This document shows, piece by piece, positions 12,555 through 46,715 of a stretch of 64,000 nucleotides of DNA. Location: positions 2,214-66,213 of the forward strand of contig CBDBLO010000002.1 of NCBI GenBank assembly GCA_965207075.1, read 5' to 3'. The position numbers were made by a program, and so were the translations under genes. This DNA comes from Nitrosopumilus sp. (GTDB lineage: Archaea; Thermoproteota; Nitrososphaeria; Nitrososphaerales; Nitrosopumilaceae). Within the stretch, counting starts at the first letter, position 1, and each line of letters opens with the position of its first letter. The notes under the pieces were generated by a model. The model was not told the DNA's origin. It made no database searches and saw nothing but the letters and a program-made list of their open reading frames with translations.

Positions 12555-12623
12555 GGGCCGGCAGGGGCCGCGGCCGGCGCGCGCCGCGGGCACCACACGA
12601 AGTACGAGTCCACGCCGCGCGCG

Positions 12624-13391: not shown

Positions 13392-13540
13392 ACTGTGCAG
13401 GCTGTGCACAGCATGGACAATTTAAAGCCAGGCGGCGCGCCGCCGGCTACGCGGCGCCGTCAAAAATGAACATTTTTTACTCCCGGACGGCGGCGCGTTT
13501 TAGAAGGTTTATAAGCGAAATTGAGGTATCAGACTTGAGG

Positions 13541-15782: not shown

Positions 15783-15800
15783 GGGCCGGGGCGGCGGCCG

Positions 15801-16672: not shown

Positions 16673-16870
16673 GTTATGTGATGCAGCATTTTGATATATA
16701 ATAGTTATCAACCTTATTGACGCTACGGTGGCGGCATCTAGAAACCCCAACAACGTCAGCCCAAATATGGGGCTTGTGTCAGTTGCCATATCCCCCTCAT
16801 GCCTAGCAACCGAACTGGAAGCGGAATCCACAAAATCAAGCTTTAATTGTGAGGGGACGGGACTCTGCTC

Positions 16871-28976: not shown

Positions 28977-30632
28977 TCACGGGCCGCGCCCGTTTGCGCC
29001 GTCCCCCGTGCCGCCGCACAGGGCCCCGATCGCGTCCCGGATCTCCCTCGCGTGCCTGTCGCTCATGCAGACGATCCTCGCGACCTCGCCGATCAGCGCG
29101 TCTGGGTCCGGGGAGCCCCCCGCGCGCAGCATCTGCTGCAGCCTGTTACGCACCGCGCGCACCTCGGCCTGGTCGTCCCTGCCCGGGCCGGCGGCGTCCC
29201 TGGCACCGCCGCGACCCGCCCCGGACGCGGCGGCGCCCCGGTGCCCGCTGAATATGTTGAGCATGTGGGCCGCCTTTGCGTACTCCGCCCGCACGGTCTC
29301 CCCGTATAAAATGGACTGCTTCTCGTACACGTCCTTTGGCTTGTGCCCTATCACGTGGTCGGCCACGTCCATCCGGCAGCCGCACTCTATGAGCGTGGAC
29401 TTTAGGAGGGAGCGCATCTCGTGCGAGTCCACGCGCCACGAGTTCTTGCCGGTCTTCTGCTGCACGCCGGAGCCCCAGGCCAGCCTCGAGAACGCGTTGG
29501 TCACCCACCCGCTCCCGATCGGCTTTAGCGCGCTCGACAGGAACAGCGGGAGATCCCCGCTCATGCCGCCCCCCGTCCTTGAGCGGCGCCAGTCCAGGTA
29601 CTCCTGCACGGCGGCCACCGCGTCCCGCTCCAAAAACCCCAGGTGCGTGTACCCCGTCTTCAGGCGCGTCAGAGTGACGGGCACGGGGCACCTGTCCAGG
29701 TCCCATCCGTGGTGGTCCTCCGTCCCGAAGTGGCGCGCCATCTGACCCCAGGCCTCAAAGTTGAACCGGTCTATCAGCGTGGAGACGTCAAGCCCCCTGT
29801 GCAGCTTGCAGAGCATCGCGGCCTTTTCCGTTATGGTGGGGCGCGCGGCAGTCAGCATCCTGCGCACGTCCCCGAGCGTGAGCGTCTGGATCGTCTCCGT
29901 GTTGTCGTACGTGGCGGCCGGGTCGAATGAGACCTCGATCCCCTGCTCGTTGCGCTTGAAATATGACAGTATGGCGTTGCGGGTCGAGGCCATCGTCGAC
30001 GCCCTCTTTCCCCGGTGCGCCGGGTCCATCAGGTACCTCTTCACTATGACGGCAACGTCCGAGCGTACTGCCAGCGGCCTGGCAAGCAGCTCTATCAGAT
30101 CCTCGACGCTCTCAAAGGCGGCCTGGCTCACGCGGGTATGGGAGCCGCCTGCCAGCATGCGCCCCCCGGAGCACCTCTTCCTGCCGCCTCCCCGGTGCCT
30201 TGCCACGTGGACTTCGTGCGTGCCGCTTGTGAGCCACCTGTTGAAGCGCCACAGGTGCCTCGCGTACGACGAGCGCGTGGTGTTGGCCGAGCCGCCGACG
30301 TTGGTCCTTGTACTGCCGCGGAGCTGGCCCAGCCAGAACGAGACGGTCCTCAGGCTCAGGAACTCGTCGGGTATGTGCCCGTCCTCCACCCTGTCAAGGG
30401 CGCCGGTTTTTGCGACGGCGGCAAGCCCGCGGCTCACAACCGAGATGGCGGTGGAGTCGTTTGCCGGCAGGCGGGGCCTGTGCTCGCTGTAGACCTCCCT
30501 GCAGGTGAGCCTCCTGCCGGGCTCGAAAGACCCGAATATGCCCACCAGCCTCTTTGGGACCTTGGCTCGCTCATAGTCGGCGGCAGTCGGCCTGCGTATG
30601 ACCGCGTACGTGATCTCGGGCCTGCCGTTCAC
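28977..30632 (-). CDS. Tyrosine recombinase/integrase with N- and C-terminal extensions
   Basis: Catalytic set R (LHRGLD), K (RLKTG), HxxR (SHEMR), H (VIGH), Y (DVYEK). Confidence 0.85.
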   Translation of the reverse strand: MNGRPEITYAVIRRPTAADYERAKVPKRLVGIFGSFEPGRRLTCREVYSEHRPRLPANDSTAISVVSRGLAAVAKTGALDRVEDGHIPDEFLSLRTVSFWLGQLRGSTRTNVGGSANTTRSSYARHLWRFNRWLTSGTHEVHVARHRGGGRKRCSGGRMLAGGSHTRVSQAAFESVEDLIELLARPLAVRSDVAVIVKRYLMDPAHRGKRASTMASTRNAILSYFKRNEQGIEVSFDPAATYDNTETIQTLTLGDVRRMLTAARPTITEKAAMLCKLHRGLDVSTLIDRFNFEAWGQMARHFGTEDHHGWDLDRCPVPVTLTRLKTGYTHLGFLERDAVAAVQEYLDWRRSRTGGGMSGDLPLFLSSALKPIGSGWVTNAFSRLAWGSGVQQKTGKNSWRVDSHEMRSLLKSTLIECGCRMDVADHVIGHKPKDVYEKQSILYGETVRAEYAKAAHMLNIFSGHRGAAASGAGRGGARDAAGPGRDDQAEVRAVRNRLQQMLRAGGSPDPDALIGEVARIVCMSDRHAREIRDAIGALCGGTGDGANGRGP

Positions 30633-30685
30633 ACACCACGCGTTGCGCCAACCTTACTTAATGCGCCGTGTCAAGAAACACTCGC

Positions 30686-30847
30686 AACTGGATAAATTTT
30701 TTTTGACAGGCTCGCCGCCGCACGGGTTCGCCCGCCGTGCGTGGGGCACCCGCGGCTCGGGGTCCGCGCCCGGCTGCTGGGGGTGGGGGGAGCGGGTGGA
30801 GGCGCGAACCCATACAGGCCATCATCATCATCAGCACCAACAACGCG
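30686..30847 (+). promoter_or_regulatory. Disrupted promoter/leader of S-layer copy A
   Basis: CTCGC-AACTGGA-TAAATTTTTTTTGACAGGC vs CACGC-TTATAAG-TAAATTTTTTTGACAGGC upstream of copy B; 108-bp insertion between ACAGGC repeats; ATG replaced by GCG (30845). Confidence 0.75.
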
Positions 30848-30887
30848 CAAAAGCGAGACCTACAGAAAATATACTAGCATAACGCTA

Positions 30888-33800
30888 ATGGCAATCATGG
30901 TCGCCGGGGGGCTGACCTTTGCCGTACCGGGCGCGGACCCCGTGTTTGCAGAAGTGAGCACGTCGAACCCGAACCTGTACGTATCGGCAGAGGGACAGGA
31001 CCCCGACAACATGTTTGCCGAAGGAAACATAATCGAAGTAATAATTAGAGACGATTCAATAGGAGATACAGACGAAGGAGAGGCGGAGCCCGAAGTTACC
31101 GTAAACGGAGCGGACCTCCGGATGCTGCAGACTGCCAACGGCTACTGGACGGCGTACTTTGCCGAGGTGGACGCGCTGGCGGGCGCAGCTGAAAGCCTCC
31201 CCTACGGTGTATACTGTAGCGAGACTGCCGCGTCAGCGGTGACAGGTCTTCCGCTCAGCGACGGCAACGGCGTATACCTGCCGCCCGGCTCCAACTGTAA
31301 TGATTCCAACACCAGCGCCAACGGCCACCCCCTGATAAGGGAGCCGCGCGACCTGACCAACTATGACGGCAACTCGCTGGGACAGCTTGGACTGTCCAAC
31401 GCGAACCTTTGGCCCTTCATCCAGGTATACGACTTTACGTCACTGACTGACGTCGACATCGTCTACAACAAGGGCGGCGATCGCCAGACCGTCACCCTGA
31501 CGTTTGACGACCCGTCAGAATCCCACTCGCTAGACCGCACCAAGTACCCGCAGGGCGCTCACGTGCACATCGAGCTGATGGACTATGCACTGAACATAGA
31601 CCCGACAGACGAGGACACGTGGGTGTTCGACACCCAGAACGGTGGGGCGTACTACAACGTGTTTGACGAGGACGGAAACCCGAGCTCTGAGATCAACGCA
31701 GTTGGCTCGGAGGCCGGCATCGACGAGACCGTAAGCATAAACCGCGGCGCACAGGGCAACGACGTGATCGACTGCCAGGTGACAAAGGACTTTGGAATAC
31801 AGGAGGAAGATAACGCGAGCCGCGACTACCTCGTGGTCGATGACTATGGCGCCTGCGTGCCCAACGTGGGCCTGGTCGCCGGCGCGGACGACGTGTTCAC
31901 GCCCGGCAACTTTGCCATCGGATTCGTGGAGGACGGCTCCAACAACAACGTATTCATCAACTGGGCCGAGGACCAGAGGTCCAACATCGTCGTAAAGAAA
32001 GACGCGCTGAGGGGCAACAGCTTCGAGGTGGACTACAGCTCTCCGGACGCAAAGTCCGGGGTCATAGGACACTTCTTTGCCGAGCTCGCGCTCGACGTGC
32101 CTGACGACACCTGGAACTCTGGCGAACGCATACCCATAACGCTTACCGACGAGGACGCCAACGTCAACCCACTCGCAGAGGACAACCTCGAGGTGGCCAA
32201 CCCGTACAGCCTGCTGGTGCCATCCATCAGGATCGGCTCGCCGGTCACGCTGGCGTCGGCCACAGGCGACGTGGTATGGTTTGACTTGGCAGATCCGCTT
32301 CCGCCTGACACCACAGATCCGGTGATCAGACTCACCGGACCCTCGGAGATCAGGCTGAACGTGGGCGACACCTATACCGAGCGGGGCGCCACGTGTACTG
32401 ACGCGAGGGACGGCAACCTAACGGTCTCCCAGACGTCGGCTGCACCCAACACTAACGTGGCAGGCACGTACACGCTGATGTACACTTGTACCGACACTGC
32501 AGGAAACTCGGCTTCCGTTACCAGAGTGGTAACCGTCGACGATCCTGACAGACCCGATACTGACATGCCCGTGATTACCGTGAACCCGGGCACCGACACC
32601 ATAACTGCCGGTGACACCTGGACCGACGCGGGAGCCAGCTGTACGGATGCCAGGGACGGGCCACTGACCGTGACCACGACTGGCACCGTCACCAACACTG
32701 CACCGGGCACCTACACCATAACGTACGCCTGTGAGGACAATGCAGGAAACTCCGCAACCGAGACTAGGACCGTAACCGTAAATGCCAGACAGGCTACGAT
32801 ATCACTGACCGTCGACCCAGGCCAATGGGATGACGGGGTTATCGAGCTGGACATAAGCGGAACCACGGTCAACGTCGCCGACGGCATCGTTACACTGACG
32901 TCAGATACCATTCCCAACTTTGGCGAGTATGACGTTACAGTAACCAGCAACGTGATATCAGGGATGATACCCTTTGCCAACGTTACGGTGTCCGGCACCC
33001 ACACGTTTACGGCAACGACTTCTGACGGCTCAATTAGTGGCAGCGACACGGCAAACATACCGCCGGCTATGTCACTCACCAACGTGGTTCACATAGACTC
33101 ATGGATCGATGCTGACGATGTTCCTACCGCGGATCGTGACTACATTACGCTACGGGTCGCAGGTACGGAATCCGTGTCTGGCCCTGTTACCTTGTCAGTA
33201 CTTGATGAGGACGGCGAGCTAACTGACAAGCTTGGCTTACCTGTACAGTTTGGCGACAACGGCCAAGTGCGTATCAACATCACGGATACATCCATACAAG
33301 GACCAACCCAGTTTGTCCTGACAACCACCTACGCTGGCGTAACTTCAACCTCAAACAGCTGGACTGCGAACATGCCCGTACTGCTTACCCTAGACGACAT
33401 CATCGTAAACGAATGGGACAATGGTTCACTCATACTGAACATCACAGGTACCAAGCAAGCAATCGTACCGAATGGCGGAGGCAGCGACAATGTCGATGTC
33501 CGCGTATCTGGTACTACTACAATCGTAGGTAGCGTTGAGGGTTACAGTGACGGTGTGGTAAACGGCACAGTAACACTTGCCGACACCGACTGGGCATTAT
33601 CCGGCACTACCGTACAGTTCGAACTGGTGGAAGACACAAATACTCCGACGATTTTCACGTCAGATCCCGTAGCCAGGGACATACCCTCGATCCTGACCAA
33701 CCTGCAAGTTACCACAACCGGTAGCAATGCGGGCCAGTGGAACGACGGGAACTTTGAGGTAAGGGTGACAGGATCCAGCGACGGCATTCCCGAGGATACC

Positions 33801-36800
33801 CTGATTAACTTGGAAGCGGACAACGGAGAGGCATGGATCCCAGTTGTAACCGGTGCTAATACACCAGGTTTACTACAGATACTGGCTGGCGGCGACATAC
33901 GCGCCACGGTATCCATAGATGACATCAACCTGTCCGGAAACACCGTGTTCAGACTGGTGACTGCTACCAATGGCGCTACATCCAACAACTCGACTGCCAT
34001 AAACATCCCATCCGTATTTACCTCTCTGCCGGTCATCACGGCAGATTCTGACGGCTGGGGTGGCGACAATAACATCGACATAAACGCACTGGGAACCTCC
34101 GGTCTGGCCGATGCCACGACCCTGCAACTGCGGGTGTCGACAGGCGGCGCATTTACGGACGTAGGGGCCACCAGTACCATTGCCGCCGATGCAAATGGCG
34201 CTATCAACCACACTGGATCCTTGACCGACCTATCACTGTCCGGAACATCAGCCACGTTCATACTGCAAGCCACTACCAGTGGTATTATTGTAATGTCAGA
34301 CAACGTGACCGTAAGCATACCTGCGGCACTGACCCTGGCAGACGTGAGCTTTGGTAATGCAGGATGGACGGGTGAAGAAGGCTCTCAAGTACTCAACCTG
34401 TTTGTAACAGGCAGCACCACGCTGACGGTTGGTAACGGGGCATCACTAGAATACTACAACGAAGCCACTGAAACTTGGGTTCCTGTTCCGGTCGACGGCG
34501 ATGGCCCCGCTCTCGTGGGTACAATACCTGACGACGGCGCCATAGCAGATGCGCAGGTAATCCTAGATGATCCAGAGCTGGCGGGCGACACAGTCCAGCT
34601 CAGACTGGTCTCAACTGATGATACAACCACGGCAGCATCGGCACCCATAACAAGGACCATTCCGGCACTGCCGCCATCAAGCAGCAGCGTCGACATGGCA
34701 CCCACGCCGATATCCTTCTCCGCACAGAACGGATTCCCGCCCATAACTAGGGCAGTAATCAACGACATCAGCGAGATACCGGCCGTGCACAACGTGCAGG
34801 CCTCATCACCGGTGGCAATATACACCTGGTCAGATGACGACAAGACCGTAGAGGCGTTCAGCGACAGGCTCAGACTATCCGAGCCTTCCGAGAGGAACAC
34901 CATAACGGGCAACTCGAAGATCGTCATATACGGATGGGAGCCACCCACGTTTGCCGACGGCGTCACAACGCTGTTCAACTGGAACTTTGGTTCCATACTG
35001 AGCGACAGCATCGCGGCCGGCACGATCATAACCGAGATCAGGCTTGCAAACGCAGCCCACACCGAAAGTGTGCTACTGGGCGACGGTGAATCCGGCCTGG
35101 TGGACATCACTGCCATGAAGGACGACATCGAGGCCCTCGGAGATACCGTAGACCTGGTCATCATGATGGACAACACCAACATCGACCACGTGTGCGGCGA
35201 CATTACGTTGGTTGCTGACTTCTTCACGTTCGGACAGAACGACGATGACGGTAGGGTGAACAACGCCATATACCGCATCGAGGTCGAGGAGGCCAGCAGC
35301 AACTCTGCCGACTTTGAGGGCACCGTGGAGTACACCATGCTCAACCAGCTGAACATCGACGATCCGGCCACGTACACGGGCCTGAGGACCATCTCAGACC
35401 AAGTGTCGATCATAGTCCACGAGGACTTTACCGACGAGGACTCCGTGAGGGTCAACTATCTCGACTTGGGCGCCGACGGCGTATCAACCCAGATAGCGAT
35501 CCAGCAGGCGGCCCCGACGCACAGCGCCGTGGTCTCCTTTGACGCGGAGAGCTACAAGGTTGCCGACACCGTTACGATAACGCTGGAGGATGCCGACCTC
35601 AACGTCCAGAACGACGTGATAGACATCTACACGTTCTCATCTGAACTCACGGACTACATCGGAGACGACAAGGCCTACATCCTCGACGTCACATTTGACG
35701 ACGAGCTATGGACCTCCGGAGAATGTGAGGGAGCCGACGGATTTGCATCCACCGGCTTCACGCTGCAGGAGACTGCGGCAGGCTCCGGCGTCTTTACGGG
35801 CGACTTCCAGATACCCGAATACTACTGCCAGTCGAGCACCACCACCATGGTCTCCGTAACCGGCGTGGACATTGAAGTCAACTATCAGGACTTCCGTGAC
35901 GCGTCCGGCGAGGAGATCGAGGTCGGAGCGGGAGCGGCGGTTCGTGCCAACACTGGTACGGTATCGCTTGACCGCACCGTATACCCGGTGCCGTTCGCGG
36001 CAGACGTGTTCGAGCACACCACAGGCACGCTCGGCCAGCACGATCTGACGGTCCACGTCACCATAGACGATCCGGACTTTGACATATCGGCTGCCGGCGA
36101 GGACGTGATATCCAACGCCACCGAGTACCTGACCGTACAGGTCATACGCGGCTCGGCATCCCAGACGATCGACCTTGACGACGCGCAGATCCTCGAGACC
36201 GCGCCCGACAGCGGCGCATTCGAGCTTGACCTGCCACTCGCGTACGACGCCGGTCCGGACGGATCGATACTGCAAGGAGACATCCTGCAGGTCGAGTACC
36301 GCGACCCGACTGACGCGTCAGGCGAGGAGAACACCGTCACAGACTCTGCTACCTTCGACCTGCGCAACGGCGTGCTCCAGTCCGACAAGTCCGTCTACAT
36401 CATCGGCTCAGACATGATCCTGACGCTGATAGAGCCGGACCTTGACCTGGAGAACGACGGCGCCGAGTCCTACACGCTCGACCTGATCGAGTGGGACTCT
36501 GACGCAGCGACGCTCGGCATGGACAACCCAGTGTTCGATCCAGAGCCATCCGAGCTCCGTGAGACTGGAGACTCCACCGGAATATTCCAGGTGATAGTCG
36601 AGATTCCCGCGGAGATCGACGGCGACCGCCTCGAGAGGGGTGAGGAGATCGAGCTCGAGTACGTTGACTGGGGTCCGTCAGGCGCCGACTATGTCGGCGA
36701 CGAGAGTGAGGACGTCGGACTGACGGTATTCACCTCCAACTTTGGCGCGACCATCGAGCTGGACCAGAAGGTGTACACGTGGACCGACAAGGTCTACATC

Positions 36801-37874
36801 ACCATCGTGGCGCCAGACCACAACTTCGACTCCGCACTTGTCGACGAGATAGGCGACTCCAACCTCGACCCGATACAGGTATCCACGCGCAGTGCCGACA
36901 TCGACAACTACAAGCTTGTCGAGACCGGTCCTGACACGGGAATCTTCACGGGTGAGGTGATCCTTATCGGATTCGACCACAACGCGGACGGCGACACCGA
37001 GACTGGTACCGAGGCAGGTTATGACAACCCGCAGCGTGACACCAGCCCAGACGGCAGCGGACCCACCAACGGCTACCTCCAGACTGACGATGACGACGGC
37101 ATCACCGTCTCATTCGAGTACTCTGAGGACGAGACCGTAGTGGGCTCTGCTCTCATCAGGTGGAACATAGGCGAAGTGCAGTGGCTCGAGTCATCGTACC
37201 CGGCATCCGGCACAGGAGTGGTCAGGGTCATCGACCCAGACATGAACTGGAACCCGGAGGCAGTGAACAACTTTGTGGTTGACGTGTGGTCAGACGCCGA
37301 CAACGGCGGAATCGACCTCACCGTAACCGAGACCAACGAGGCGACCGGAATATTCGAAGGCACGGTGTTCTTCACCATAACCGACGAGTCGTCCGGGCAC
37401 CGCCTCCGCGTCGCAGAGGGCAACACTGTAACGGCCGAGTATGAGGACAACACGCTACCAGACCCGTACACGACAGCAGACGAGCTCGACATAACGGCAA
37501 CCACGCTGATCGGCACCATCGTGCCTCCGCTGGAGAGGGCGCCCGCAACCAACCTTAGGATTGTGGATGCCTTCGGCAACAGCCTAGACACGGTGTCTGC
37601 AGACCAGCAGGTGCAGATCGTGGCAGACCTGGCCAACGGCCAGGACCGCTCCCAGGCCTTTGCCTATCTGGTACAGGTCCAGGACGCAAACGGTGTCACG
37701 GTCGCGCTCTCCTGGATATCCGGAACGCTGGAGGCAGGACAGTCACTGAGTCCGTCAACATCATGGATTCCATCCGAGGCGGGAACCTACACGGCAACCG
37801 CGTTCGTATGGGAGTCAGTTGACAACCCGACTGCCCTATCGCCGCCGGTCACAACCGACATCACCGTAAGCTAG
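30888..37874 (+). CDS. Large thaumarchaeal-type S-layer protein, copy A (probably a silent cassette)
   Basis: Reading frame open to 37874 (ORF track starts at GTG 30741); N-terminus YRKYTSITLMAIMVAGGLTFA, acidic beta-rich body, DUF5011-like Ig repeats, C-terminal ...SWIP..AGTYTATAFVWES; 30888 is the first ATG inside the homologous region. Confidence 0.85.
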   Translation: MAIMVAGGLTFAVPGADPVFAEVSTSNPNLYVSAEGQDPDNMFAEGNIIEVIIRDDSIGDTDEGEAEPEVTVNGADLRMLQTANGYWTAYFAEVDALAGAAESLPYGVYCSETAASAVTGLPLSDGNGVYLPPGSNCNDSNTSANGHPLIREPRDLTNYDGNSLGQLGLSNANLWPFIQVYDFTSLTDVDIVYNKGGDRQTVTLTFDDPSESHSLDRTKYPQGAHVHIELMDYALNIDPTDEDTWVFDTQNGGAYYNVFDEDGNPSSEINAVGSEAGIDETVSINRGAQGNDVIDCQVTKDFGIQEEDNASRDYLVVDDYGACVPNVGLVAGADDVFTPGNFAIGFVEDGSNNNVFINWAEDQRSNIVVKKDALRGNSFEVDYSSPDAKSGVIGHFFAELALDVPDDTWNSGERIPITLTDEDANVNPLAEDNLEVANPYSLLVPSIRIGSPVTLASATGDVVWFDLADPLPPDTTDPVIRLTGPSEIRLNVGDTYTERGATCTDARDGNLTVSQTSAAPNTNVAGTYTLMYTCTDTAGNSASVTRVVTVDDPDRPDTDMPVITVNPGTDTITAGDTWTDAGASCTDARDGPLTVTTTGTVTNTAPGTYTITYACEDNAGNSATETRTVTVNARQATISLTVDPGQWDDGVIELDISGTTVNVADGIVTLTSDTIPNFGEYDVTVTSNVISGMIPFANVTVSGTHTFTATTSDGSISGSDTANIPPAMSLTNVVHIDSWIDADDVPTADRDYITLRVAGTESVSGPVTLSVLDEDGELTDKLGLPVQFGDNGQVRINITDTSIQGPTQFVLTTTYAGVTSTSNSWTANMPVLLTLDDIIVNEWDNGSLILNITGTKQAIVPNGGGSDNVDVRVSGTTTIVGSVEGYSDGVVNGTVTLADTDWALSGTTVQFELVEDTNTPTIFTSDPVARDIPSILTNLQVTTTGSNAGQWNDGNFEVRVTGSSDGIPEDTLINLEADNGEAWIPVVTGANTPGLLQILAGGDIRATVSIDDINLSGNTVFRLVTATNGATSNNSTAINIPSVFTSLPVITADSDGWGGDNNIDINALGTSGLADATTLQLRVSTGGAFTDVGATSTIAADANGAINHTGSLTDLSLSGTSATFILQATTSGIIVMSDNVTVSIPAALTLADVSFGNAGWTGEEGSQVLNLFVTGSTTLTVGNGASLEYYNEATETWVPVPVDGDGPALVGTIPDDGAIADAQVILDDPELAGDTVQLRLVSTDDTTTAASAPITRTIPALPPSSSSVDMAPTPISFSAQNGFPPITRAVINDISEIPAVHNVQASSPVAIYTWSDDDKTVEAFSDRLRLSEPSERNTITGNSKIVIYGWEPPTFADGVTTLFNWNFGSILSDSIAAGTIITEIRLANAAHTESVLLGDGESGLVDITAMKDDIEALGDTVDLVIMMDNTNIDHVCGDITLVADFFTFGQNDDDGRVNNAIYRIEVEEASSNSADFEGTVEYTMLNQLNIDDPATYTGLRTISDQVSIIVHEDFTDEDSVRVNYLDLGADGVSTQIAIQQAAPTHSAVVSFDAESYKVADTVTITLEDADLNVQNDVIDIYTFSSELTDYIGDDKAYILDVTFDDELWTSGECEGADGFASTGFTLQETAAGSGVFTGDFQIPEYYCQSSTTTMVSVTGVDIEVNYQDFRDASGEEIEVGAGAAVRANTGTVSLDRTVYPVPFAADVFEHTTGTLGQHDLTVHVTIDDPDFDISAAGEDVISNATEYLTVQVIRGSASQTIDLDDAQILETAPDSGAFELDLPLAYDAGPDGSILQGDILQVEYRDPTDASGEENTVTDSATFDLRNGVLQSDKSVYIIGSDMILTLIEPDLDLENDGAESYTLDLIEWDSDAATLGMDNPVFDPEPSELRETGDSTGIFQVIVEIPAEIDGDRLERGEEIELEYVDWGPSGADYVGDESEDVGLTVFTSNFGATIELDQKVYTWTDKVYITIVAPDHNFDSALVDEIGDSNLDPIQVSTRSADIDNYKLVETGPDTGIFTGEVILIGFDHNADGDTETGTEAGYDNPQRDTSPDGSGPTNGYLQTDDDDGITVSFEYSEDETVVGSALIRWNIGEVQWLESSYPASGTGVVRVIDPDMNWNPEAVNNFVVDVWSDADNGGIDLTVTETNEATGIFEGTVFFTITDESSGHRLRVAEGNTVTAEYEDNTLPDPYTTADELDITATTLIGTIVPPLERAPATNLRIVDAFGNSLDTVSADQQVQIVADLANGQDRSQAFAYLVQVQDANGVTVALSWISGTLEAGQSLSPSTSWIPSEAGTYTATAFVWESVDNPTALSPPVTTDITVS

Positions 37875-37909
37875 TATATACACAAAAACACACAGAAAAA
37901 AATTTCCCC

Positions 37910-37928
37910 TTTTTTCTTTTTTTATTTT
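37910..37928 (+). terminator. Archaeal oligo-T terminator of S-layer copy A
   Basis: TTTTTTCTTTTTTTATTTT just downstream of the stop. Confidence 0.75.
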
Positions 37929-38259
37929 GGACTAACAGCGGATGCTGTGACCGTCAGGTTGTAGCATGCGCAAATCCGCGCTATGCTGTATCCAGAGACT
38001 TGGTCGACGAGCAGCAAAAATGGTAATCAAGTACGTGACGTCCCTTGCTGCATGTAGGACGATAACGAAATATGGAATAATTTCCGACCAGCTAACGTGA
38101 AAGATCTACGAGTGCGTCCGACCATGTTAAAGCGGGTTCATCCACCGCGCCGTTCTGCGACGAGTTTTCTTTGCGCGTTTTATTTTCTGCATGTGGGCAA
38201 CCGACGGTTTTTGGGCTGGGCTTGGACATAACCTCTGAAGTCATGGAAGGATTGCACTA

Positions 38260-39364
38260 GAGTGACGATCATTGAAAATTTCGCTTCACACGCAGCGGTA
38301 CAGAAATTTGTAGATGTCAAGCCTGATTGGGCACGTCCTGAAATATTCGGACACAGCATGCGTCAGATCCTCCCGCGTCTCGTAGTGTTCTGAGGTGACA
38401 AGCCTGTACTTTGCATCCTTCCATACGGACTCGACTGCGCTGAGCTTCGGTGTGGCGGTGGGCAGGTACAGGATCTCCACCCCGTCGTGTTCCTTCAGGT
38501 ACTTTTTCACCTCCCTGTGCTTGTGCTGGCTTGCGTTGTCCGCTACGAGCAGGACCCTGCCCCACTTGCGGCGCACCTTCCTGAGATACCGTACGAACGT
38601 CGGGCCGTCGAACTTCTCATACTGCCGCATCAGTCTCGTTCCATCCTCTGCAAGCGTGCCGAACACGACGGTCCGATCCCTCCTGCCGTGCCGGCTGACA
38701 GTCACGGAATCCCCGACGCGCGACCACAGCTTCCTTCCGTTCGTCCCCGTTCTGAGAAATATGGACTCGTCCTGCACCGCGATCGTCAATCCGCGCCTTT
38801 TTGCACCCGATATCGTGCCTGCGGCGTCGGCCTGCCACTGCCTTACCGCGTCGGCGTCGGCAGCCGAGGCGTACAGGGTGGTCGACCTCTTGGACGAGAA
38901 CCCGAGGCGTCGCAGGATCCTGCGCACGCTGCACAGGCTGTACCGGATGTACAGCCTCTCCCGTATCCAGTTCCGCAGCTTTCTCGGGGTGAGCGTGTTC
39001 CTGCCTGCAAGCCTGTCGGCCACCCTCCTGATCTGGCCGTACCTTGCGCGTGAAGCCCTGCCCCTCCCGGGAGCGTCCCGGAGGCCACCGATGCCGTCCT
39101 CGTTGAACCGGGCAACCCACAGTTGCACCGTTCGCTGGTCCACGTCTGCAAAATCAGACGCGGTCCTTGTCGAGTGGCCCTTGAGCACACCCAGGACAGC
39201 CATCATCCTGTTGCGGATCCTGACGTCCCTCTCTGCACGCATGGCCTCCTTCAGCTCCCAGATCTTCTTGCTGTTCTCGATCATGGATGGGGCGGCGATC
39301 CGGCGATCAATAAGCTTTTCTGCGGTTGTCCATCATGAGGCGAAATTTTCAATGAGCGTCACTC
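38260..39364 (-). mobile_element. IS630/Tc1-mariner family IS
   Basis: TIRs GAGTGACGATCATTGAAAATTTCGC / GAGTGACGCTCATTGAAAATTTCGC (1 mismatch); TA on both sides (38258-59, 39365-66) in a CTAG context. Confidence 0.93.
38286..39284 (-). CDS. IS630 transposase (intact, single frame)
   Basis: Two HTH regions; DDE triad QDES / ADNAS / AVESVW. Confidence 0.93.
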   Translation of the reverse strand: MIENSKKIWELKEAMRAERDVRIRNRMMAVLGVLKGHSTRTASDFADVDQRTVQLWVARFNEDGIGGLRDAPGRGRASRARYGQIRRVADRLAGRNTLTPRKLRNWIRERLYIRYSLCSVRRILRRLGFSSKRSTTLYASAADADAVRQWQADAAGTISGAKRRGLTIAVQDESIFLRTGTNGRKLWSRVGDSVTVSRHGRRDRTVVFGTLAEDGTRLMRQYEKFDGPTFVRYLRKVRRKWGRVLLVADNASQHKHREVKKYLKEHDGVEILYLPTATPKLSAVESVWKDAKYRLVTSEHYETREDLTHAVSEYFRTCPIRLDIYKFLYRCV

Positions 39365-39609
39365 TAGTGGACGCTCTGACAGCTTGAATGCGCCGCGGTT
39401 AAATGATGCGTCCATCTACCCATGAGATGATATGGGCAGCCACCCCCGTATTCAACACCGCCGTTATCCGCAATCCGTCGCCGGCCGGATACAACGGCGG
39501 CCGCCATAGCAACATTATGGCCAAGTTTTACGCCCAAACGCCGGCAAATCAGAATAGAGGTGCCATGCTTGTGCAATCATGTGACGGTCACAGCATCCGC
39601 TGTTAGTCC

Positions 39610-39628
39610 AAAATAAAAAAAGAAAAAA
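39610..39628 (-). terminator. Oligo-T terminator of S-layer copy B
   Basis: Reverse complement of the copy A terminator. Confidence 0.75.
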
Positions 39629-39663
39629 GGGGAAATTTTTTTCTGTGTGTTTTTGTGTATATA

Positions 39664-42600
39664 CTAGCTTACGGTGATGTCGGTTGTGACCGGCGGCGAT
39701 AGGGCAGTCGGGTTGTCAACTGACTCCCATACGAACGCGGTTGCCGTGTAGGTTCCCGCCTCGGATGGAATCCATGATGTTGACGGACTCAGTGACTGTC
39801 CTGCCTCCAGCGTTCCGGATATCCAGGAGAGCGCGACCGTGACACCGTTTGCGTCCTGGACCTGTACCAGATAGGCAAAGGCCTGGGAGCGGTCCTGGCC
39901 GTTGGCCAGGTCTGCCACGATCTGCACCTGCTGGTCTGCAGACACCGTGTCTAGGCTGTTGCCGAAGGCATCCACAATCCTAAGGTTGGTTGCGGGCGCC
40001 CTCTCCAGCGGAGGCACGATGGTGCCGATCAGCGTGGTTGCCGTTATGTCGAGCTCGTCTGCTGTCGTGTACGGGTCTGGTAGCGTGTTGTCCTCATACT
40101 CGGCCGTTACAGTGTTGCCCTCTGCGACGCGGAGGCGGTGCCCGGACGACTCGTCGGTTATGGTGAAGAACACCGTGCCTTCGAATATTCCGGTCGCCTC
40201 GTTGGTCTCGGTTACGGTGAGGTCGATTCCGCCGTTGTCGGCGTCTGACCACACGTCAACCACAAAGTTGTTCACTGCCTCCGGGTTCCAGTTCATGTCT
40301 GGGTCGATGACCCTGACCACTCCTGTGCCGGATGCCGGGTACGATGACTCGAGCCACTGCACTTCGCCTATGTTCCACCTGATGAGAGCAGAGCCCACTA
40401 CGGTCTCGTCCTCAGAGTACTCGAATGAGACGGTGATGCCGTCGTCATCGTCAGTCTGGAGGTAGCCGTTGGTGGGTCCGCTGCCGTCTGGGCTGGTGTC
40501 ACGCTGCGGGTTGTCATAACCTGCCTCGGTACCAGTCTCGGTGTCGCCGTCCGCGTTGTGGTCGAATCCGATAAGGATCACCTCACCCGTGAAGATTCCC
40601 GTGTCAGGACCGGTCTCGACAAGCTTGTAGTTGTCGATGTCGGCACTGCGCGTGGATACCTGTATCGGGTCGAGGTTGGAGTCGCCTATCTCGTCGACAA
40701 GTGCGGAGTCGAAGTTGTGGTCTGGCGCCACGATGGTGATGTAGACCTTGTCGGTCCACGTGTACACCTTCTGGTCCAGCTCGATGGTCGCGCCAAAGTT
40801 GGAGGTGAATACCGTCAGTCCGACGTCCTCACTCTCGTCGCCGACATAGTCGGCGCCTGACGGACCCCAGTCAACGTACTCGAGCTCGATCTCCTCACCC
40901 CTCTCGAGGCGGTCGCCGTCGATCTCCGCGGGAATCTCGACTATCACCTGGAATATTCCGGTGGAGTCTCCAGTCTCACGGAGCTCGGATGGCTCTGGAT
41001 CGAACACTGGGTTGTCCATGCCGAGCGTCGCTGCGTCAGAGTCCCACTCGATCAGGTCGAGCGTGTAGGACTCGGCGCCGTCGTTCTCCAGGTCAAGGTC
41101 CGGCTCTATCAGCGTCAGGATCATGTCTGAGCCGATGATGTAGACGGACTTGTCGGACTGGAGCACGCCGTTGCGCAGGTCGAAGGTAGCAGAGTCTGTG
41201 ACGGTGTTCTCCTCGCCTGACGCGTCAGTCGGGTCGCGGTACTCGACCTGCAGGATGTCTCCTTGCAGTATCGATCCGTCCGGACCGGCGTCGTACGCGA
41301 GTGGCAGGTCAAGCTCGAATGCGCCGCTGTCGGGCGCGGTCTCGAGGATCTGCGCGTCGTCAAGGTCGATCGTCTGGGATGCCGAGCCGCGTATGACCTG
41401 TACGGTCAGGTACTCGGTGGCGTTGGATATCACGTCCTCGCCGGCAGCCGATATGTCAAAGTCCGGATCGTCTATGGTGACGTGGACCGTCAGATCGTGC
41501 TGGCCGAGCGTGCCTGTGGTGTGCTCGAACACGTCTGCCGCGAACGGCACCGGGTATACGGTGCGGTCAAGCGATACCGTACCAGTGTTGGCACGAACCG
41601 CCGCTCCCGCTCCGACCTCGATCTCCTCGCCGGACGCGTCACGGAAGTCCTGATAGTTGACTTCAATGTCCACGCCGGTTACGGAGACCATGGTGGTGGT
41701 GCTCGACTGGCAGTAGTATTCGGGTATCTGGAAGTCGCCCGTAAAGACGCCGGAGCCTGCCGCAGTCTCCTGCAGCGTGAAGCCGGTGGATGCAAATCCG
41801 TCGGCTCCCTCACATTCTCCGGAGGTCCATAGCTCGTCGTCAAATGTGACGTCGAGGATGTAGGCCTTGTCGTCTCCGATGTAGTCCGTGAGTTCAGATG
41901 AGAACGTGTAGATGTCTATCACGTCGTTCTGGACGTTGAGGTCGGCATCCTCCAGCGTTATCGTAACGGTGTCGGCAACCTTGTAGCTCTCCGCGTCAAA
42001 GGAGACCACGGCGCTGTGCGTCGGGGCCGCCTGCTGGATCGCTATCTGGGTTGATACGCCGTCGGCGCCCAAGTCGAGATAGTTGACCCTCACGGAGTCC
42101 TCGTCGGTAAAGTCCTCGTGGACTATGATCGACACTTGGTCTGAGATGGTCCTCAGGCCCGTGTACGTGGCCGGATCGTCGATGTTCAGCTGGTTGAGCA
42201 TGGTGTACTCCACGGTGCCCTCAAAGTCGGCAGAGTTGCTGCTGGCCTCCTCGACCTCGATGCGGTATATGGCGTTGTTCACCCTACCGTCATCGTCGTT
42301 CTGTCCGAACGTGAAGAAGTCAGCAACCAACGTAATGTCGCCGCACACGTGGTCGATGTTGGTGTTGTCCATCATGATGACCAGGTCTACGGTATCTCCG
42401 AGGGCCTCGATGTCGTCCTTCATGGCAGTGATGTCCACCAGGCCGGATTCACCGTCGCCCAGTAGCACACTTTCGGTGTGGGCTGCGTTTGCAAGCCTGA
42501 TCTCGGTTATGATCGTGCCGGCCGCGATGCTGTCGCTCAGTATGGAACCAAAGTTCCAGTTGAACAGCGTTGTGACGCCGTCGGCAAACGTGGGTGGCTC

Positions 42601-45600
42601 CCATCCGTATATGACGATCTTCGAGTTGCCCGTTATGGTGTTCCTCTCGGAAGGCTCGGATAGTCTGAGCCTGTCGCTGAACGCCTCTACGGTCTTGTCG
42701 TCATCTGACCAGGTGTATATTGCCACCGGTGATGAGGCCTGCACGTTGTGCACGGCCGGTATCTCGCTGATGTCGTTGATTACTGCCCTGGTTATGGGCG
42801 GGAATCCGTTCTGTGCGGAGAAGGATATCGGCGTCGGTACCATGTCGACGCTGTTGCCAGATGGCAGTGCCGGAACGACCCTTGATAGGGAGTTTGATAC
42901 TGCTATGGCGGGGTCACTACCTGTTTGCAGTCTGAACTGGACTGTGTCGCCCGCCAGTTCTGTATCATCTAGGGTTACCACCGCGTCAGATATGTCACCC
43001 GCTGTGCCGCTTGCAGCAGGGGTAAGAGGGATCCATGTTTCGCCGTTGGTGGATACCGCTAGTGTTGCGCCTGTACTCAATTTGCTGTTGCCTGTTACAA
43101 ACAGGTTGAGGCTATGATCAGTATCAGTTGTGTTAGTCCATCCTGCATTGCCGAAACTCACGTCTGCCAGGGTCAGTGCCGCAGGTATGCTTACGGTCCT
43201 GTTGCCTGACTCTGCCACATTGCCGCCGACAGTGACTGCCAGTTTGAACGTGGTCGTTATTCCGGACATTGCGATGTCGTTCAGGGTTGCATTGTAGTCG
43301 AAATTGCCGCCTGTAAGGGCGGTGTCAAAGGCATTACCTACGTCAACAAACTCATTAGCTTTCACCGCCTGCAATTGCAGAGACGTACCCGAAGCACCCA
43401 AGCCAGAGGTTCCCTTTACGTTTATCGTAAGGGCGCCAGCATCCGTCCAGTCACCAATCGGCGTGACGGTCGGCAGGGATGTGAGTATGTGCGGGATGCG
43501 CACGGCTGTCGAGTTGTTTGACGCGGCATCGTTGGCATATTCATTGGATTGGTCAGTGCCAGTCACCAGCCTAAACACGGTATCTCCGGACAGAGATATG
43601 TCCGTTATGGATACCGTGGCGCGTATGTCGCCGCCAGACAGTATCCGCAGTCCCGTAGTTGTGCCATCTACAACCGTCGTCCATTGATCGTCGATGTCTG
43701 CCTGCAGGTCAATCTCGGTATCCTCTGCAATGCCGTCGCTGAGTCCTGTCACCCTTACCTCAAAGTTCCCGTCGTTCCACTGGCCCGCGTTGCTGCCGGT
43801 TGTGACAACTTGCAGGTTGGTCAGTATCGGGGGTATGTCTCTGGATAGGGGATCTGATGTGAAAGTCGTCGCCGCACCTCCGGAGTTTTCCACCAGTACA
43901 AACTGTACGGTAGTGCCGGATAATGCGAGGTCGTCGGCGCCAAGTGTTACCGTGCCGTTTACCACGCCGTCATCGAAACCAGAAACCGAAACCGTACCTA
44001 CGGCTGCTCCAGTATCAACTAGATGGACAGTGAATGCGCCACCGCCGTCGGTATTCGGTACGATTGCTTGCTTGCTACCTGTTATGTTCAGTATGAGCGA
44101 ACCCGTGGTTGCACCTGCGATCCATTCATTTACGATGATGTCGTCTAGGGTAAGCAGTACGGGCATGGGCGCAGTCCAACTGTTTGAAGCTACAGGTACG
44201 CCAGCGTAGGTGGTTGTCAGGACAAACTGGGTTGGGCCTTGTATGGCAGTATTCGTTATGTTGATACGCGCTTGGTTGTTGACAAACTGTACAGGTTGGT
44301 TAAGCGTGGCTGTATCAAGCTCGCCGTCCTCATCAAGTACTGACAAGGCAACGGCGCCAGACACGGATTCCGTACCTGCGACCCGTAGCGTAATGTAATC
44401 ATCACCAGTGTCAGGATTAATCCATTCATCTACGGGAACCACGTTGGTAAGGGATATCGCCGGCGGTATGTTTGCCGTGTCGCTGTTACTAATTGAGCCG
44501 TCAGAAGTCGTTGCCGTAAACGTGTGGGTGCCGGACACCGTAACGTTGGCAAAGGGTATCATCCCTGATATCACGTTGCTGGTTACTGCAACGTCATACT
44601 CGCCAAAGTTGGGAATGGTGTCTGACGTCAGTGTAACGGTGCCGTCGGCGACGTTGACCGTGGTTCCGCTTATGTCCAGCTCGATAACTCCGTCATCCCA
44701 TTGGCCTGGGTCGACGGTCAGTGATATCGTAGCCTGTCTGGCATTTACGGTTACGGTCCTAGTCTCGGTTGCGGAGTTTCCTGCATTGTCCTCACAGGCG
44801 TACGTTATGGTGTAGGTGCCCGGTGCAGTGTTGGTGACGGTGCCAGTCGTGGTCACGGTCAGTGGCCCGTCCCTGGCATCCGTACAGCTGGCTCCCGCGT
44901 CGGTCCAGGTGTCACCGGCAGTTATGGTGTCGGTGCCCGGGTTCACGGTAATCACGGGCATGTCAGTATCGGGTCTGTCAGGATCGTCGACGGTTACCAC
45001 TCTGGTAACGGAAGCCGAGTTTCCTGCAGTGTCGGTACAAGTGTACATCAGCGTGTACGTGCCTGCCACGTTAGTGTTGGGTGCAGCCGACGTCTGGGAG
45101 ACCGTTAGGTTGCCGTCCCTCGCGTCAGTACACGTGGCGCCCCGCTCGGTATAGGTGTCGCCCACGTTCAGCCTGATCTCCGAGGGTCCGGTGAGTCTGA
45201 TCACCGGATCTGTGGTGTCAGGCGGAAGCGGATCTGCCAAGTCAAACCATACCACGTCGCCTGTGGCCGACGCCAGCGTGACCGGCGAGCCGATCCTGAT
45301 GGATGGCACCAGCAGGCTGTACGGGTTGGCCACCTCGAGGTTGTCCTCTGCGAGTGGGTTGACGTTGGCGTCCTCGTCGGTAAGCGTTATGGGTATGCGT
45401 TCGCCAGAGTTCCAGGTGTCGTCAGGCACGTCGAGCGCGAGCTCGGCAAAGAAGTGTCCTATGACCCCGGACTTTGCGTCCGGAGAGCTGTAGTCCACCT
45501 CGAAGCTGTTGCCCCTCAGCGCGTCTTTCTTTACGACGATGTTGGACCTCTGGTCCTCGGCCCAGTTGATGAATACGTTGTTGTTGGAGCCGTCCTCCAC

Positions 45601-46680
45601 GAATCCGATGGCAAAGTTGCCGGGCGTGAACACGTCGTCCGCGCCGGCGACCAGGCCCACGTTGGGCACGCAGGCGCCATAGTCATCGACCACGAGGTAG
45701 TCGCGGCTCGCGTTATCTTCCTCCTGTATTCCAAAGTCCTTTGTCACCTGGCAGTCGATCACGTCGTTGCCCTGTGCGCCGCGGTTTATGCTTACGGTCT
45801 CGTCGATGCCGGCCTCCGAGCCAACTGCGTTGATCTCAGAGCTCGGGTTTCCGTCCTCGTCAAACACGTTGTAGTACGCCCCACCGTTCTGGGTGTCGAA
45901 CACCCACGTGTCCTCGTCTGTCGGGTCTATGTTCAGTGCATAGTCCATCAGCTCGATGTGCACGTGAGCGCCCTGCGGGTACTTGGTGCGGTCTAGCGAG
46001 TGGGATTCTGACGGGTCGTCAAACGTCAGGGTGACGGTCTGGCGATCGCCGCCCTTGTTGTAGACGATGTCGACGTCAGTCAGTGACGTAAAGTCGTATA
46101 CCTGGATGAAGGGCCAAAGGTTCGCGTTGGACAGTCCAAGCTGTCCCAGCGAGTTGCCGTCATAGTTGGTCAGGTCGCGCGGCTCCCTTATCAGGGGGTG
46201 GCCGTTGGCGCTGGTGTTGGAATCATTACAGTTGGAGCCGGGCGGCAGGTATACGCCGTTGCCGTCGCTGAGCGGAAGACCTGTCACCGCTGACGCGGCA
46301 GTCTCGCTACAGTATACACCGTAGGGGAGGCTTTCAGCTGCGCCCGCCAGCGCGTCCACCTCGGCAAAGTACGCCGTCCAGTAGCCGTTGGCAGTCTGCA
46401 GCATCCGGAGGTCCGCTCCGTTTACGGTAACTTCGGGCTCTGCTTCGCCCTCGTCCGTGTCTCCTATTGAGTCATCTCTTATGATTACTTCGATTATGTT
46501 TCCTTCGGCAAACATGTTGTCGGGGTCCTGTCCCTCTGCCGATACGTACAGGTTCGGGTTCGACGTGCTCACTTCTGCAAACACGGGGTCCGCGCCCGGT
46601 ACGGCAAAGGTCAGCCCCCCGGCGACCATGATTGCCATTAGCGTTATGCTAGTATATTTTCTGTAGATTTCGTTTTGCAT
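39664..46680 (-). CDS. Large thaumarchaeal-type S-layer protein, copy B (probably the expressed copy)
   Basis: 2338 aa; complete signal peptide MQNEIYRKYTS...; near-identical to copy A outside the central segment. Confidence 0.92.
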   Translation of the reverse strand: MQNEIYRKYTSITLMAIMVAGGLTFAVPGADPVFAEVSTSNPNLYVSAEGQDPDNMFAEGNIIEVIIRDDSIGDTDEGEAEPEVTVNGADLRMLQTANGYWTAYFAEVDALAGAAESLPYGVYCSETAASAVTGLPLSDGNGVYLPPGSNCNDSNTSANGHPLIREPRDLTNYDGNSLGQLGLSNANLWPFIQVYDFTSLTDVDIVYNKGGDRQTVTLTFDDPSESHSLDRTKYPQGAHVHIELMDYALNIDPTDEDTWVFDTQNGGAYYNVFDEDGNPSSEINAVGSEAGIDETVSINRGAQGNDVIDCQVTKDFGIQEEDNASRDYLVVDDYGACVPNVGLVAGADDVFTPGNFAIGFVEDGSNNNVFINWAEDQRSNIVVKKDALRGNSFEVDYSSPDAKSGVIGHFFAELALDVPDDTWNSGERIPITLTDEDANVNPLAEDNLEVANPYSLLVPSIRIGSPVTLASATGDVVWFDLADPLPPDTTDPVIRLTGPSEIRLNVGDTYTERGATCTDARDGNLTVSQTSAAPNTNVAGTYTLMYTCTDTAGNSASVTRVVTVDDPDRPDTDMPVITVNPGTDTITAGDTWTDAGASCTDARDGPLTVTTTGTVTNTAPGTYTITYACEDNAGNSATETRTVTVNARQATISLTVDPGQWDDGVIELDISGTTVNVADGTVTLTSDTIPNFGEYDVAVTSNVISGMIPFANVTVSGTHTFTATTSDGSISNSDTANIPPAISLTNVVPVDEWINPDTGDDYITLRVAGTESVSGAVALSVLDEDGELDTATLNQPVQFVNNQARINITNTAIQGPTQFVLTTTYAGVPVASNSWTAPMPVLLTLDDIIVNEWIAGATTGSLILNITGSKQAIVPNTDGGGAFTVHLVDTGAAVGTVSVSGFDDGVVNGTVTLGADDLALSGTTVQFVLVENSGGAATTFTSDPLSRDIPPILTNLQVVTTGSNAGQWNDGNFEVRVTGLSDGIAEDTEIDLQADIDDQWTTVVDGTTTGLRILSGGDIRATVSITDISLSGDTVFRLVTGTDQSNEYANDAASNNSTAVRIPHILTSLPTVTPIGDWTDAGALTINVKGTSGLGASGTSLQLQAVKANEFVDVGNAFDTALTGGNFDYNATLNDIAMSGITTTFKLAVTVGGNVAESGNRTVSIPAALTLADVSFGNAGWTNTTDTDHSLNLFVTGNSKLSTGATLAVSTNGETWIPLTPAASGTAGDISDAVVTLDDTELAGDTVQFRLQTGSDPAIAVSNSLSRVVPALPSGNSVDMVPTPISFSAQNGFPPITRAVINDISEIPAVHNVQASSPVAIYTWSDDDKTVEAFSDRLRLSEPSERNTITGNSKIVIYGWEPPTFADGVTTLFNWNFGSILSDSIAAGTIITEIRLANAAHTESVLLGDGESGLVDITAMKDDIEALGDTVDLVIMMDNTNIDHVCGDITLVADFFTFGQNDDDGRVNNAIYRIEVEEASSNSADFEGTVEYTMLNQLNIDDPATYTGLRTISDQVSIIVHEDFTDEDSVRVNYLDLGADGVSTQIAIQQAAPTHSAVVSFDAESYKVADTVTITLEDADLNVQNDVIDIYTFSSELTDYIGDDKAYILDVTFDDELWTSGECEGADGFASTGFTLQETAAGSGVFTGDFQIPEYYCQSSTTTMVSVTGVDIEVNYQDFRDASGEEIEVGAGAAVRANTGTVSLDRTVYPVPFAADVFEHTTGTLGQHDLTVHVTIDDPDFDISAAGEDVISNATEYLTVQVIRGSASQTIDLDDAQILETAPDSGAFELDLPLAYDAGPDGSILQGDILQVEYRDPTDASGEENTVTDSATFDLRNGVLQSDKSVYIIGSDMILTLIEPDLDLENDGAESYTLDLIEWDSDAATLGMDNPVFDPEPSELRETGDSTGIFQVIVEIPAEIDGDRLERGEEIELEYVDWGPSGADYVGDESEDVGLTVFTSNFGATIELDQKVYTWTDKVYITIVAPDHNFDSALVDEIGDSNLDPIQVSTRSADIDNYKLVETGPDTGIFTGEVILIGFDHNADGDTETGTEAGYDNPQRDTSPDGSGPTNGYLQTDDDDGITVSFEYSEDETVVGSALIRWNIGEVQWLESSYPASGTGVVRVIDPDMNWNPEAVNNFVVDVWSDADNGGIDLTVTETNEATGIFEGTVFFTITDESSGHRLRVAEGNTVTAEYEDNTLPDPYTTADELDITATTLIGTIVPPLERAPATNLRIVDAFGNSLDTVSADQQVQIVADLANGQDRSQAFAYLVQVQDANGVTVALSWISGTLEAGQSLSPSTSWIPSEAGTYTATAFVWESVDNPTALSPPVTTDITVS

Positions 46681-46709
46681 GTTATTGATGGCCTGTCAAA
46701 AAAATTTAC

Positions 46710-46715
46710 TTATAA
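46710..46715 (-). promoter_or_regulatory. TATA box of S-layer copy B
   Basis: TTATAA 30 bp upstream of ATG 46680. Confidence 0.75.

Follow-up and report, generated by a model that had tools for sequence, protein, structure and literature searches.

The window analysed here is a 64,000-nucleotide (nt) stretch of a Nitrosopumilus sp. contig (CBDBLO010000002.1), with a G+C content of 61%. It is found in sponge and reef metagenomes, and its nearest public genomes are sponge-associated Nitrosopumilaceae metagenome-assembled genomes (MAGs). The centre of the window is occupied by two very large convergent open reading frames (ORFs), copy A (plus strand) and copy B (minus strand), encoding surface-layer (S-layer) proteins. 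Copy B matches the N. maritimus S-layer protein in the PDB (8c8k; phmmer E=0, 1383 bits), so A and B are both genuine S-layer genes; a Pfam search identifies Bact_surface_Ig-like domains in the S-layer proteins of the locus. The S-layer is the outermost structure in most archaea, and in ammonia oxidizers it gathers ammonium at the cell surface. S-layer gene sets are expanded in ammonia-oxidizing archaea of sponges (PMC6790972).

Copies A and B form a modular inverted repeat, each gene composed of an N-terminal arm, a variable middle cassette and a C-terminal arm (Table 1). The arms are 99% identical overall, with fully identical interiors of 1.75 kb (N) and 3.2 kb (C), and thus represent inverted, recombination-capable conserved segments of homologous S-layer genes. 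Inside the otherwise identical N arm, ten A/B differences cluster in 43 nt (31043–31085), ten synonymous and none nonsynonymous; judged by this clustering, they probably represent one short conversion tract from another functional allele. In a related strain, covered across the entire locus by three contigs (L011, L015 and L016), the convergent S-layer genes meet in a perfect fold-back inside the C-terminal arm (long-read contig L015, 16478/16479, equal to L016; equivalent window position 36619), so that the spacer and ~1.25 kb from the 3′ coding end of each gene are missing. The junction may be a genuine palindromic deletion between the inverted arms, or it may have arisen during assembly.

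Table 1 Features of the S-layer locus and its surroundings (window coordinates)
Feature	Position	Strand	Remarks
Tyrosine recombinase gene (Rec, 551 aa), divergent from A	28977..30632	-	Weak integrase profile matches; catalytic residues
Imperfect palindrome TGTCAAGAAA (30669-30678) ... TTTTTTGACA (30699-30708)	30669..30708	.	Rec upstream region
AACTGGA	30686..30692	+	Occupies the place of B's TTATAAG (46709-46715); A/B homology ends here
TAAATTTTTTTTGACAGGC, S-layer promoter spacer remnant	30693..30711	+	Common to B (46708-46691); chromosomally inverted relative to B's copy
108-bp filler, 81% G+C	30712..30819	+	7-bp stem hairpin; conserved over first ~15-30 nt only
A-specific stretch before former start	30820..30859	+	CAT x4 (30820-30831), GCG 30845-30847 for ATG, +1 nt
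N-terminal arm, 2267 nt	30850..33116	.	Inverted repeat of 44410-46676; 31086-32836 100% identical to B
S-layer copy A, open frame of 2328 codons from first ATG (MAIMVAGG..., mid signal peptide)	30888..37874	+	ORF finder extends to GTG 30741
A-specific variable middle cassette	33117..34672	+	63% amino-acid identity to B middle (42866-44409)
C-terminal arm, 3316 nt	34673..37988	.	Inverted repeat of 39550-42865; 34749-37956 100% identical to B
IS630-type insertion sequence	38254..39370	-	DDE_3 transposase 38286-39284 (Pfam); in 1.5-kb spacer between convergent genes
S-layer copy B, 2338 aa, expressed	39664..46680	-	8c8k match; high RNA depth over 5′ end in X15, X14
Core promoter of B	46686..46715	-	TATA TTATAA 46710-46715; RNA 5′ end 46686, 6 nt upstream of ATG
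Third, partial cassette, 1206-aa ORF	48940..52560	-	FN3 + DUF4344 N-terminus fused to S-layer middle region

Copy B possesses a complete promoter. A 38-nt RNA contig from a sponge metatranscriptome (X15), with a depth of 7000 and 0 mismatches to the window, terminates at 46686, and no RNA was found upstream of this position in X15. This 5′ end puts TTATAA at −24 to −29, the canonical archaeal TATA distance, identifying it as the real TATA box of B and confirming an assignment made in an earlier note on this DNA. A second metatranscriptome (X14) contains an adapter-joined end at 46672 whose sequence is B-type (CGAAATCTACAG) and not A-type. The ~60 nt upstream of the B ATG are nearly invariant across three genomes, whose coding arms differ by ~15%. 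Copy B also carries the charged n-region of its secretion signal (MQNEIYRKYTSITLMAIMVAGGLTFAVPGA).

The region upstream of copy A is built differently. AACTGGA stands at the TATA position of B, just as the earlier note had recognized, and directly after these heptamers both copies read TAAATTTTTTT(T)GACAGGC. The shared spacer block is identical to B at 19/20 nt and is found in all six A-type and all three B-type loci. The ‘otherwise matching context’ claimed around the replacement does not hold on its 5′ side, where there are about 4–5 chance matches and the sequence belongs to the upstream region of the divergent tyrosine recombinase gene, Rec. No TTTAWA or TTATAW motif occurs within 30633–30866, and the only TATA-like sequence there is a retained ATAAAT at 30692, at the start of the shared block.

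Between the shared block and the coding region lies the filler, which the same note had described as a GC-rich insert. The stretch is indeed bracketed by ACAGGC (30706–30711 and 30814–30819) but is not a simple insertion, given that relatives carry different fillers and that the ACAGGC direct repeat is not conserved among their A-type copies. It has no significant similarity to the B upstream region; a displaced B upstream region as its source was rejected by local alignment, whose scores, in either orientation, did not exceed those of shuffled sequence. Directly after GACAGGC, CGCACGG (30719–30725) and CCGTGCG (30735–30741) form a hairpin with an N9 loop. Identical 7-bp stems around another loop are found in the A-type locus of the complete MAG OZ242041, which suggests a conserved structure or binding site. 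A run of CAT x4 follows, previously taken for a (CAT)n expansion; the run itself is there, but it reads ‘caccagcgtcaccaccat’ in the closest strain, which marks it as A-specific sequence that has diverged and contains a small local repeat, rather than an expansion of B's CATCAATAAC. The lost start and +1 shift are both borne out: GCG replaces ATG, and copy A is one nucleotide longer here (34 nt) than B or the A-type copy of a close strain (L011), both at 33, the shift being specific to the window.

Beyond these changes, the frame of A is open. The ~2330 downstream codons reported earlier come to 2328 on counting, from ATG 30888 to the stop at 37874, and a public gene call (P0112) begins at the same ATG. 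Copy A contains no ATG upstream of 30888. Read from this codon, its product is without the charged n-region of the signal peptide.

The architecture of copy A is conserved across relatives. Our set of A-type loci (n=6) comprises the window, L001 (which is OZ242041), L011, L012 (from a 5x assembly only), L013 and L014. All six have the junction with the Rec region, no TATA at the B position, a replaced ATG and a retained TAAATTTT..GACAG block. The ATG is substituted by GCG in the window and L011, GCA in L012 and L013, CCG in L014 and an out-of-frame GTG in OZ242041. Because the Rec junction and the loss of ATG are common to six sponge-associated Nitrosopumilaceae lineages, both are old and ancestral. 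Both S-layer copies of a distant Cenarchaeum sp. genome (loci L004 and L005) have a TATA box and ATG, so the silent design is derived within this clade. Upstream of the L005 S-layer gene (~9760–10000), the promoter unit TGAAyCAATC...CTTATnTAGTAAAATTG is tandemly duplicated; the two S-layer copies of that genome lie in direct orientation, each with TATA and ATG.

Unlike these ancestral losses, the filler, ACAGGC repeat, CAT run and +1 shift vary between lineages and thus appear to be later drift in unconstrained DNA. The filler of OZ242041 is about 85 nt and partly alignable; that of L012–L014 consists of AT-rich tandem repeats, and its place in L011 is taken by a 6-kb island (TPR, SNF2 helicase and SWIM genes). 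The ‘several separate lesions’ of the earlier note therefore reduce to one old rearrangement junction (the TATA loss), an ancestral ATG loss and subsequent drift. The island spans 11743–17791 of reverse-complemented L011 (window-equivalent 30720..30819), encodes a SNF2-family helicase with DUF3670 and belongs to the majority strain of the same sponge samples. We found no convincing match for the filler as a scar of the two island ends. Two A-locus alleles co-exist in the same sponge samples, the window type at contig depths of 45–460 and the island type at 110–1710, as seen in assembler contigs (rare variants dropped, 2.3-kb arm unspannable) from deep DNA sequencing of this population (four runs, X1–X4). 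The AT-rich tandem units between Rec and the A-type copy in L012–L014 (2 or 3 units, for example, cgtgaattgtaccaatattattttaattcg) resemble gtaccaatattacttaatacg, just upstream of Rec; they may represent duplicated promoter units, arm-type sites for the recombinase, or a combination of the two.

Rec adjoins the A-type copy in L001, L012, L013 and L014, with the 6-kb island intervening in L011. The protein has weak integrase matches in Pfam, PHROG and NCBIfam, and PF00589 is present on most of its 111 homologues. R279, K325, H404, R407, H430 and Y436 are invariant across 12 homologues, a pattern from which Rec is predicted to be catalytically intact. Its upstream palindrome is kept in all close relatives, and the T-run/GACA part of the 19-nt block shared by A and B constitutes one half of it. 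A similar layout, (G/A)TCAA-A-run ... TTGAT, is found upstream of distant Rec orthologues (57–63% identity), which have methyltransferase and AsnC–UbiA genes as neighbours and no S-layer gene; Rec and S-layer genes therefore do not consistently co-occur. We consider it unlikely that A arrived on a mobile element with Rec as its integrase, as AsnC and UbiA stay downstream of Rec in distant relatives.

Reading frames at the silent site are maintained. They are open at full length in the window and OZ242041 (2469 aa), and to the contig ends in L013 and L014. In OZ242041, where the A/B arms have diverged (86% and 94% identity), a three-taxon decomposition puts dN/dS on the A-type branch at 0.20 for the N arm and 0.15 for the C arm, equal to the B-type branch. 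In L011, the A-type frame is broken by a +16-nt shift near codon 305 and is open again beyond it, which fits a copy that is not translated in place.

The S-layer copies are mosaics, and the same cassette lineage is found at silent sites and at expressed sites in different genomes. The promoter-linked copy of L002 sides with the OZ242041 silent-site copy at most informative sites (for example, 75 vs 9 and 72 vs 2 per 60 codons), its middle sharing 75% amino-acid identity with that copy vs 44% with the OZ242041 expressed copy. The silent-site copy of L015 is 92% identical over 5.8 kb to the expressed copy B of the window, and the L015 expression site holds a very different allele. The 3′ half of the A middle of the window is 90–95% identical to the A-locus copy of L012. 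A 796-nt RNA contig from a further metatranscriptome (X23) is 93% like 33933–34718, with a depth similar to that of the conserved arm, so transcripts of a cassette resembling the A middle are present in that sample. A protein-level query restricted to the A-specific middle gave no matches, its candidate list being probably saturated by low-complexity words.

On balance, we favour a reading in which A serves as a silent reserve and trades sequence with B through homologous recombination, or inversion, between the inverted arms. The storage cassette of the earlier note survives in this form: comparative and RNA data support a copy that is devoid of expression signals yet open, but not the idea that those signals ‘decayed’. 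One old rearrangement would have fused the S-layer promoter spacer (TAAATTTTTTTGACAGGC) with sequence upstream of the resident Rec gene, its breakpoint lying in A/T-rich similarity between that spacer and the Rec upstream motif; the TATA box would then have been cut away rather than mutated, and ATG may have disappeared in that same ancestor. Sequence from the remnant spacer to the old start site would since have drifted freely, giving the filler, the CAT run and, in this strain, the +1 shift. The gene body, by contrast, would be kept usable because A and B are inverted repeats with long arms of identical interior. In such an arrangement, B would act as a fixed expression site and A as its silent reserve, linked by homologous recombination between the long inverted arms. 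Should a crossover occur in the N arm, 33117–44409 would be inverted, bringing the A middle and C-terminus behind the promoter, start codon and signal peptide of B; gene conversion between the arms could have the same outcome without inversion, and the partial cassette (48940–52560) may be a further donor. The benefit could be surface variation against viruses, or host recognition. The evidence says that A is not a dead gene.

Several observations weigh against this proposal. The retained ATAAATTTTTTTT at 30692 could serve as a weak TATA, and ATG 30888 or GTG 30741 could initiate translation. No public RNA runs with the A upstream region were found, only DNA-like runs of the same population, and it is thus that we infer, rather than observe, the silence of A here. 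The X1–X4 contigs, which omit rare variants and cannot span the 2.3-kb arm, show no inversion isomers or hybrid junctions; inversion of the spacer bearing the insertion sequence (IS) and hybrid junctions at the 19-nt block were both looked for in them, and none was seen. Exchange between genomes could also proceed by gene conversion or allele replacement without programmed switching. A comparison of dN/dS across strains, as the earlier note had advised, gives the low values of the OZ242041 A-type arms but not of the A-specific middle, where two silent-site copies (the window vs L012, the latter at 5x) yield 0.59, weakly below neutral. We also rejected the ten synonymous to zero nonsynonymous differences of the N arm as strong evidence of selection, these being clustered in 43 nt and probably one tract.

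A first alternative, which we hold to be rather unlikely, is that A is expressed in place, from an unrecognized A-specific promoter or the internal AAAATATA (30866–30873), with translation from ATG 30888, ATG 30897 or GTG 30741. A and B would then be co-expressed or differentially regulated paralogues, paralleling N. maritimus Nmar_1547/Nmar_1201 and Cenarchaeum sp. (both copies with TATA and ATG). Such expression would account for the intact 2328-codon frame and for purifying selection on the OZ242041 A-type branch. It is also in keeping with gene callers beginning the protein at ATG 30888, with TATA-like motifs held by the AT-rich repeats upstream in L012–L014, with an in-frame TTG three codons before the former start in L013 and with two expressed paralogues in relatives (L004, L005; PMC11153153). 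However, a protein starting at MAIMVAGG would be without the charged n-region that is found in every promoter-bearing copy, and the filler, GC-rich in the window and OZ242041, AT-rich in L012–L014 and a 6-kb island in L011, is unconserved, unlike a promoter. Moreover, the OZ242041 A-type copy has an in-frame stop just upstream, L011 is frameshifted in the N arm, and four metatranscriptomes, derived from other strains, have no RNA contig over 30500–30835. Lost expression signals would also suit a functionless, decaying duplicate, whose open frame and identical arms stem from passive gene conversion by B and whose middle has not yet acquired a stop. The frameshift of L011, a fragmented copy in L012 (5x assembly only), the dN/dS of 0.59 in the A-specific middle and the mobile elements piled up around the locus (IS630, TnpB and the 6-kb island) are consistent with decay. 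Nevertheless, the architecture persists through at least six lineages whose coding arms are 10–15% apart in nucleotides (frames being open at full length in the window and OZ242041 and up to the contig ends in L013 and L014), the middle cassettes differ by hundreds of substitutions and in-frame indels with no stop codon, and silent-site cassettes recur at the expression sites of other genomes, hence are in use. We regard decay as unlikely.

Rec could instead act, in a programmed and site-specific manner, on the two inverted copies of TAAATTTTTTTGACAGGC (30693–30711 and 46691–46708), flipping a 16-kb segment such that the TATA of B passes to A and is withdrawn from B; the event would join gcaactgga-TAAATTTTTTTGACAGGC to CATCAATAACATG. 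Rec is intact with invariant catalytic residues, and its adjacency to the A-type copy is kept in 5/6 lineages despite nearby rearrangements. The inverted 19-nt block lies exactly between the B TATA and transcription start, and upstream of A, and overlaps a palindrome native to the Rec upstream region. Against this, A would still be without a start codon and would retain the filler as a leader of ~170 nt: as the block precedes the start codon, recombining at it would not give A its start back. The palindrome half-sites are ~20 nt apart, compared with the 6–8-nt spacer of classical tyrosine-recombinase core sites, and no hybrid junction was seen in the X1–X4 contigs. The distant orthologues occupy the same chromosomal place by AsnC–UbiA and are unaccompanied by an S-layer gene, which indicates that Rec has another primary role. 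Thus, we think an inversion of this kind improbable, and it seems equally doubtful that Rec is a dedicated switch enzyme acting on the 19-nt block as its recombination site to hand a single S-layer promoter between the copies. A recombinase-driven switch at the block is possible but disfavoured.

S-layer gene switching between an expression site and silent copies is textbook for a few bacteria; a literature search for a silent S-layer copy or S-layer switching in archaea found no report. The closest analogues of a reserve copy such as A therefore appear to be bacterial, namely the Campylobacter fetus sap and Lactobacillus slpA/slpB systems. In C. fetus, several sapA homologues are served by one promoter, with inversion through conserved 5′ regions. 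Common to both loci are S-layer cassettes whose conserved 5′ coding regions are recombination substrates, a single promoter and exchange of the variable remainder, the last two being putative here. They differ in that the C. fetus promoter segment lies between divergent cassettes and itself inverts, and silent copies there keep their start codons, whereas the promoter described here is fixed outside the invertible segment and is accompanied by two full copies and one partial cassette only. Mycoplasma vsa/vpma loci switch expression by a locus-encoded tyrosine recombinase (Xer1/HvsR; PMC5634654). Such loci resemble ours in having one expression site with a promoter and 5′ end, silent genes that are without these (A being presumed silent), an adjoining tyrosine recombinase and a short shared 5′ sequence. 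Here, by contrast, the shared 19-nt block is upstream of the start codon, distant Rec orthologues are unlinked to S-layer genes and any action of Rec on the S-layer locus is putative.

In Lactobacillus acidophilus, 0.3% of chromosomes have an inverted segment that brings a silent S-layer gene to the expression site (PMC3666127). The slpA/slpB pair, too, consists of two homologous S-layer genes in opposite orientation on one chromosomal segment, with an active promoter before one gene only and an intact frame in the silent gene (the silence of A being presumed); exchange brings the silent gene to the expression site, as inversion, unobserved in our data, would do here. Unlike slpA/slpB, the locus belongs to an archaeon, and its promoter has a TATA box and gives a near-leaderless mRNA; its genes are 7 kb and convergent; its arms are 2.3 and 3.3 kb of coding sequence, such that exchange would swap the internal variable module only; and the silent copy is also devoid of a start codon. 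A relative closer in sequence is N. maritimus, whose paralogues Nmar_1547 and Nmar_1201 differ mainly in an internal segment, with one dominant in expression (PMC11153153). The protein family is the same (B vs 8c8k, E=0), again with two internally differing paralogues, but a promoterless, start-less copy, an inverted arrangement and an adjoining recombinase go unreported in the passages of that article that were consulted.

In these uncultured sponge symbionts, the locus gives archaea an example open to testing: a fixed promoter and signal-peptide module is combined with long near-identical inverted arms and with a hypervariable middle module, of which there are at least two complete versions and a partial one. 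If exchange is ongoing, it would explain the large middle differences between co-occurring strains and would suggest that viruses or the host exert pressure on the archaeal surface within sponges. Were the Rec switch to prove true, it would be the first time that surface phase variation under recombinase control had been described in archaea, and in an animal symbiont. There is also a lesson for annotation, in that gene callers give A as a normal 2328-aa protein despite its missing promoter, start codon and half signal peptide.

The partial cassette is situated beyond copy B. Its middle shares 73% amino-acid identity with the B middle and 63% with the A middle; it stops exactly at the would-be start of the C arm, and degenerate arm sequence follows (I7, 78%). 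From this layout, the cassette could be a third donor or the relic of a third S-layer copy. The DUF4344 (putative metallopeptidase) gene is duplicated in the window (48940–52560 and 47074–48411, both minus strand) and single in OZ242041 and L015.

Mobile elements are dispersed around the locus. The IS630-type element is multi-copy, with several different flanks in X1–X4, and is absent from the same spacer in L015; its transposase gene has a 1-nt indel polymorphism at 38543. Just downstream of Rec, L011 (11876–13013) and L014 (6188–7773) have an AbiEi/AbiEii toxin–antitoxin pair where the window has TnpB. Three TnpB/Cas12f-like (IS200/IS605-type) genes are present in the window (17459–18853, 27324–28676 and 56861–58201), the two outer ones being ~56% identical to the one adjoining Rec.

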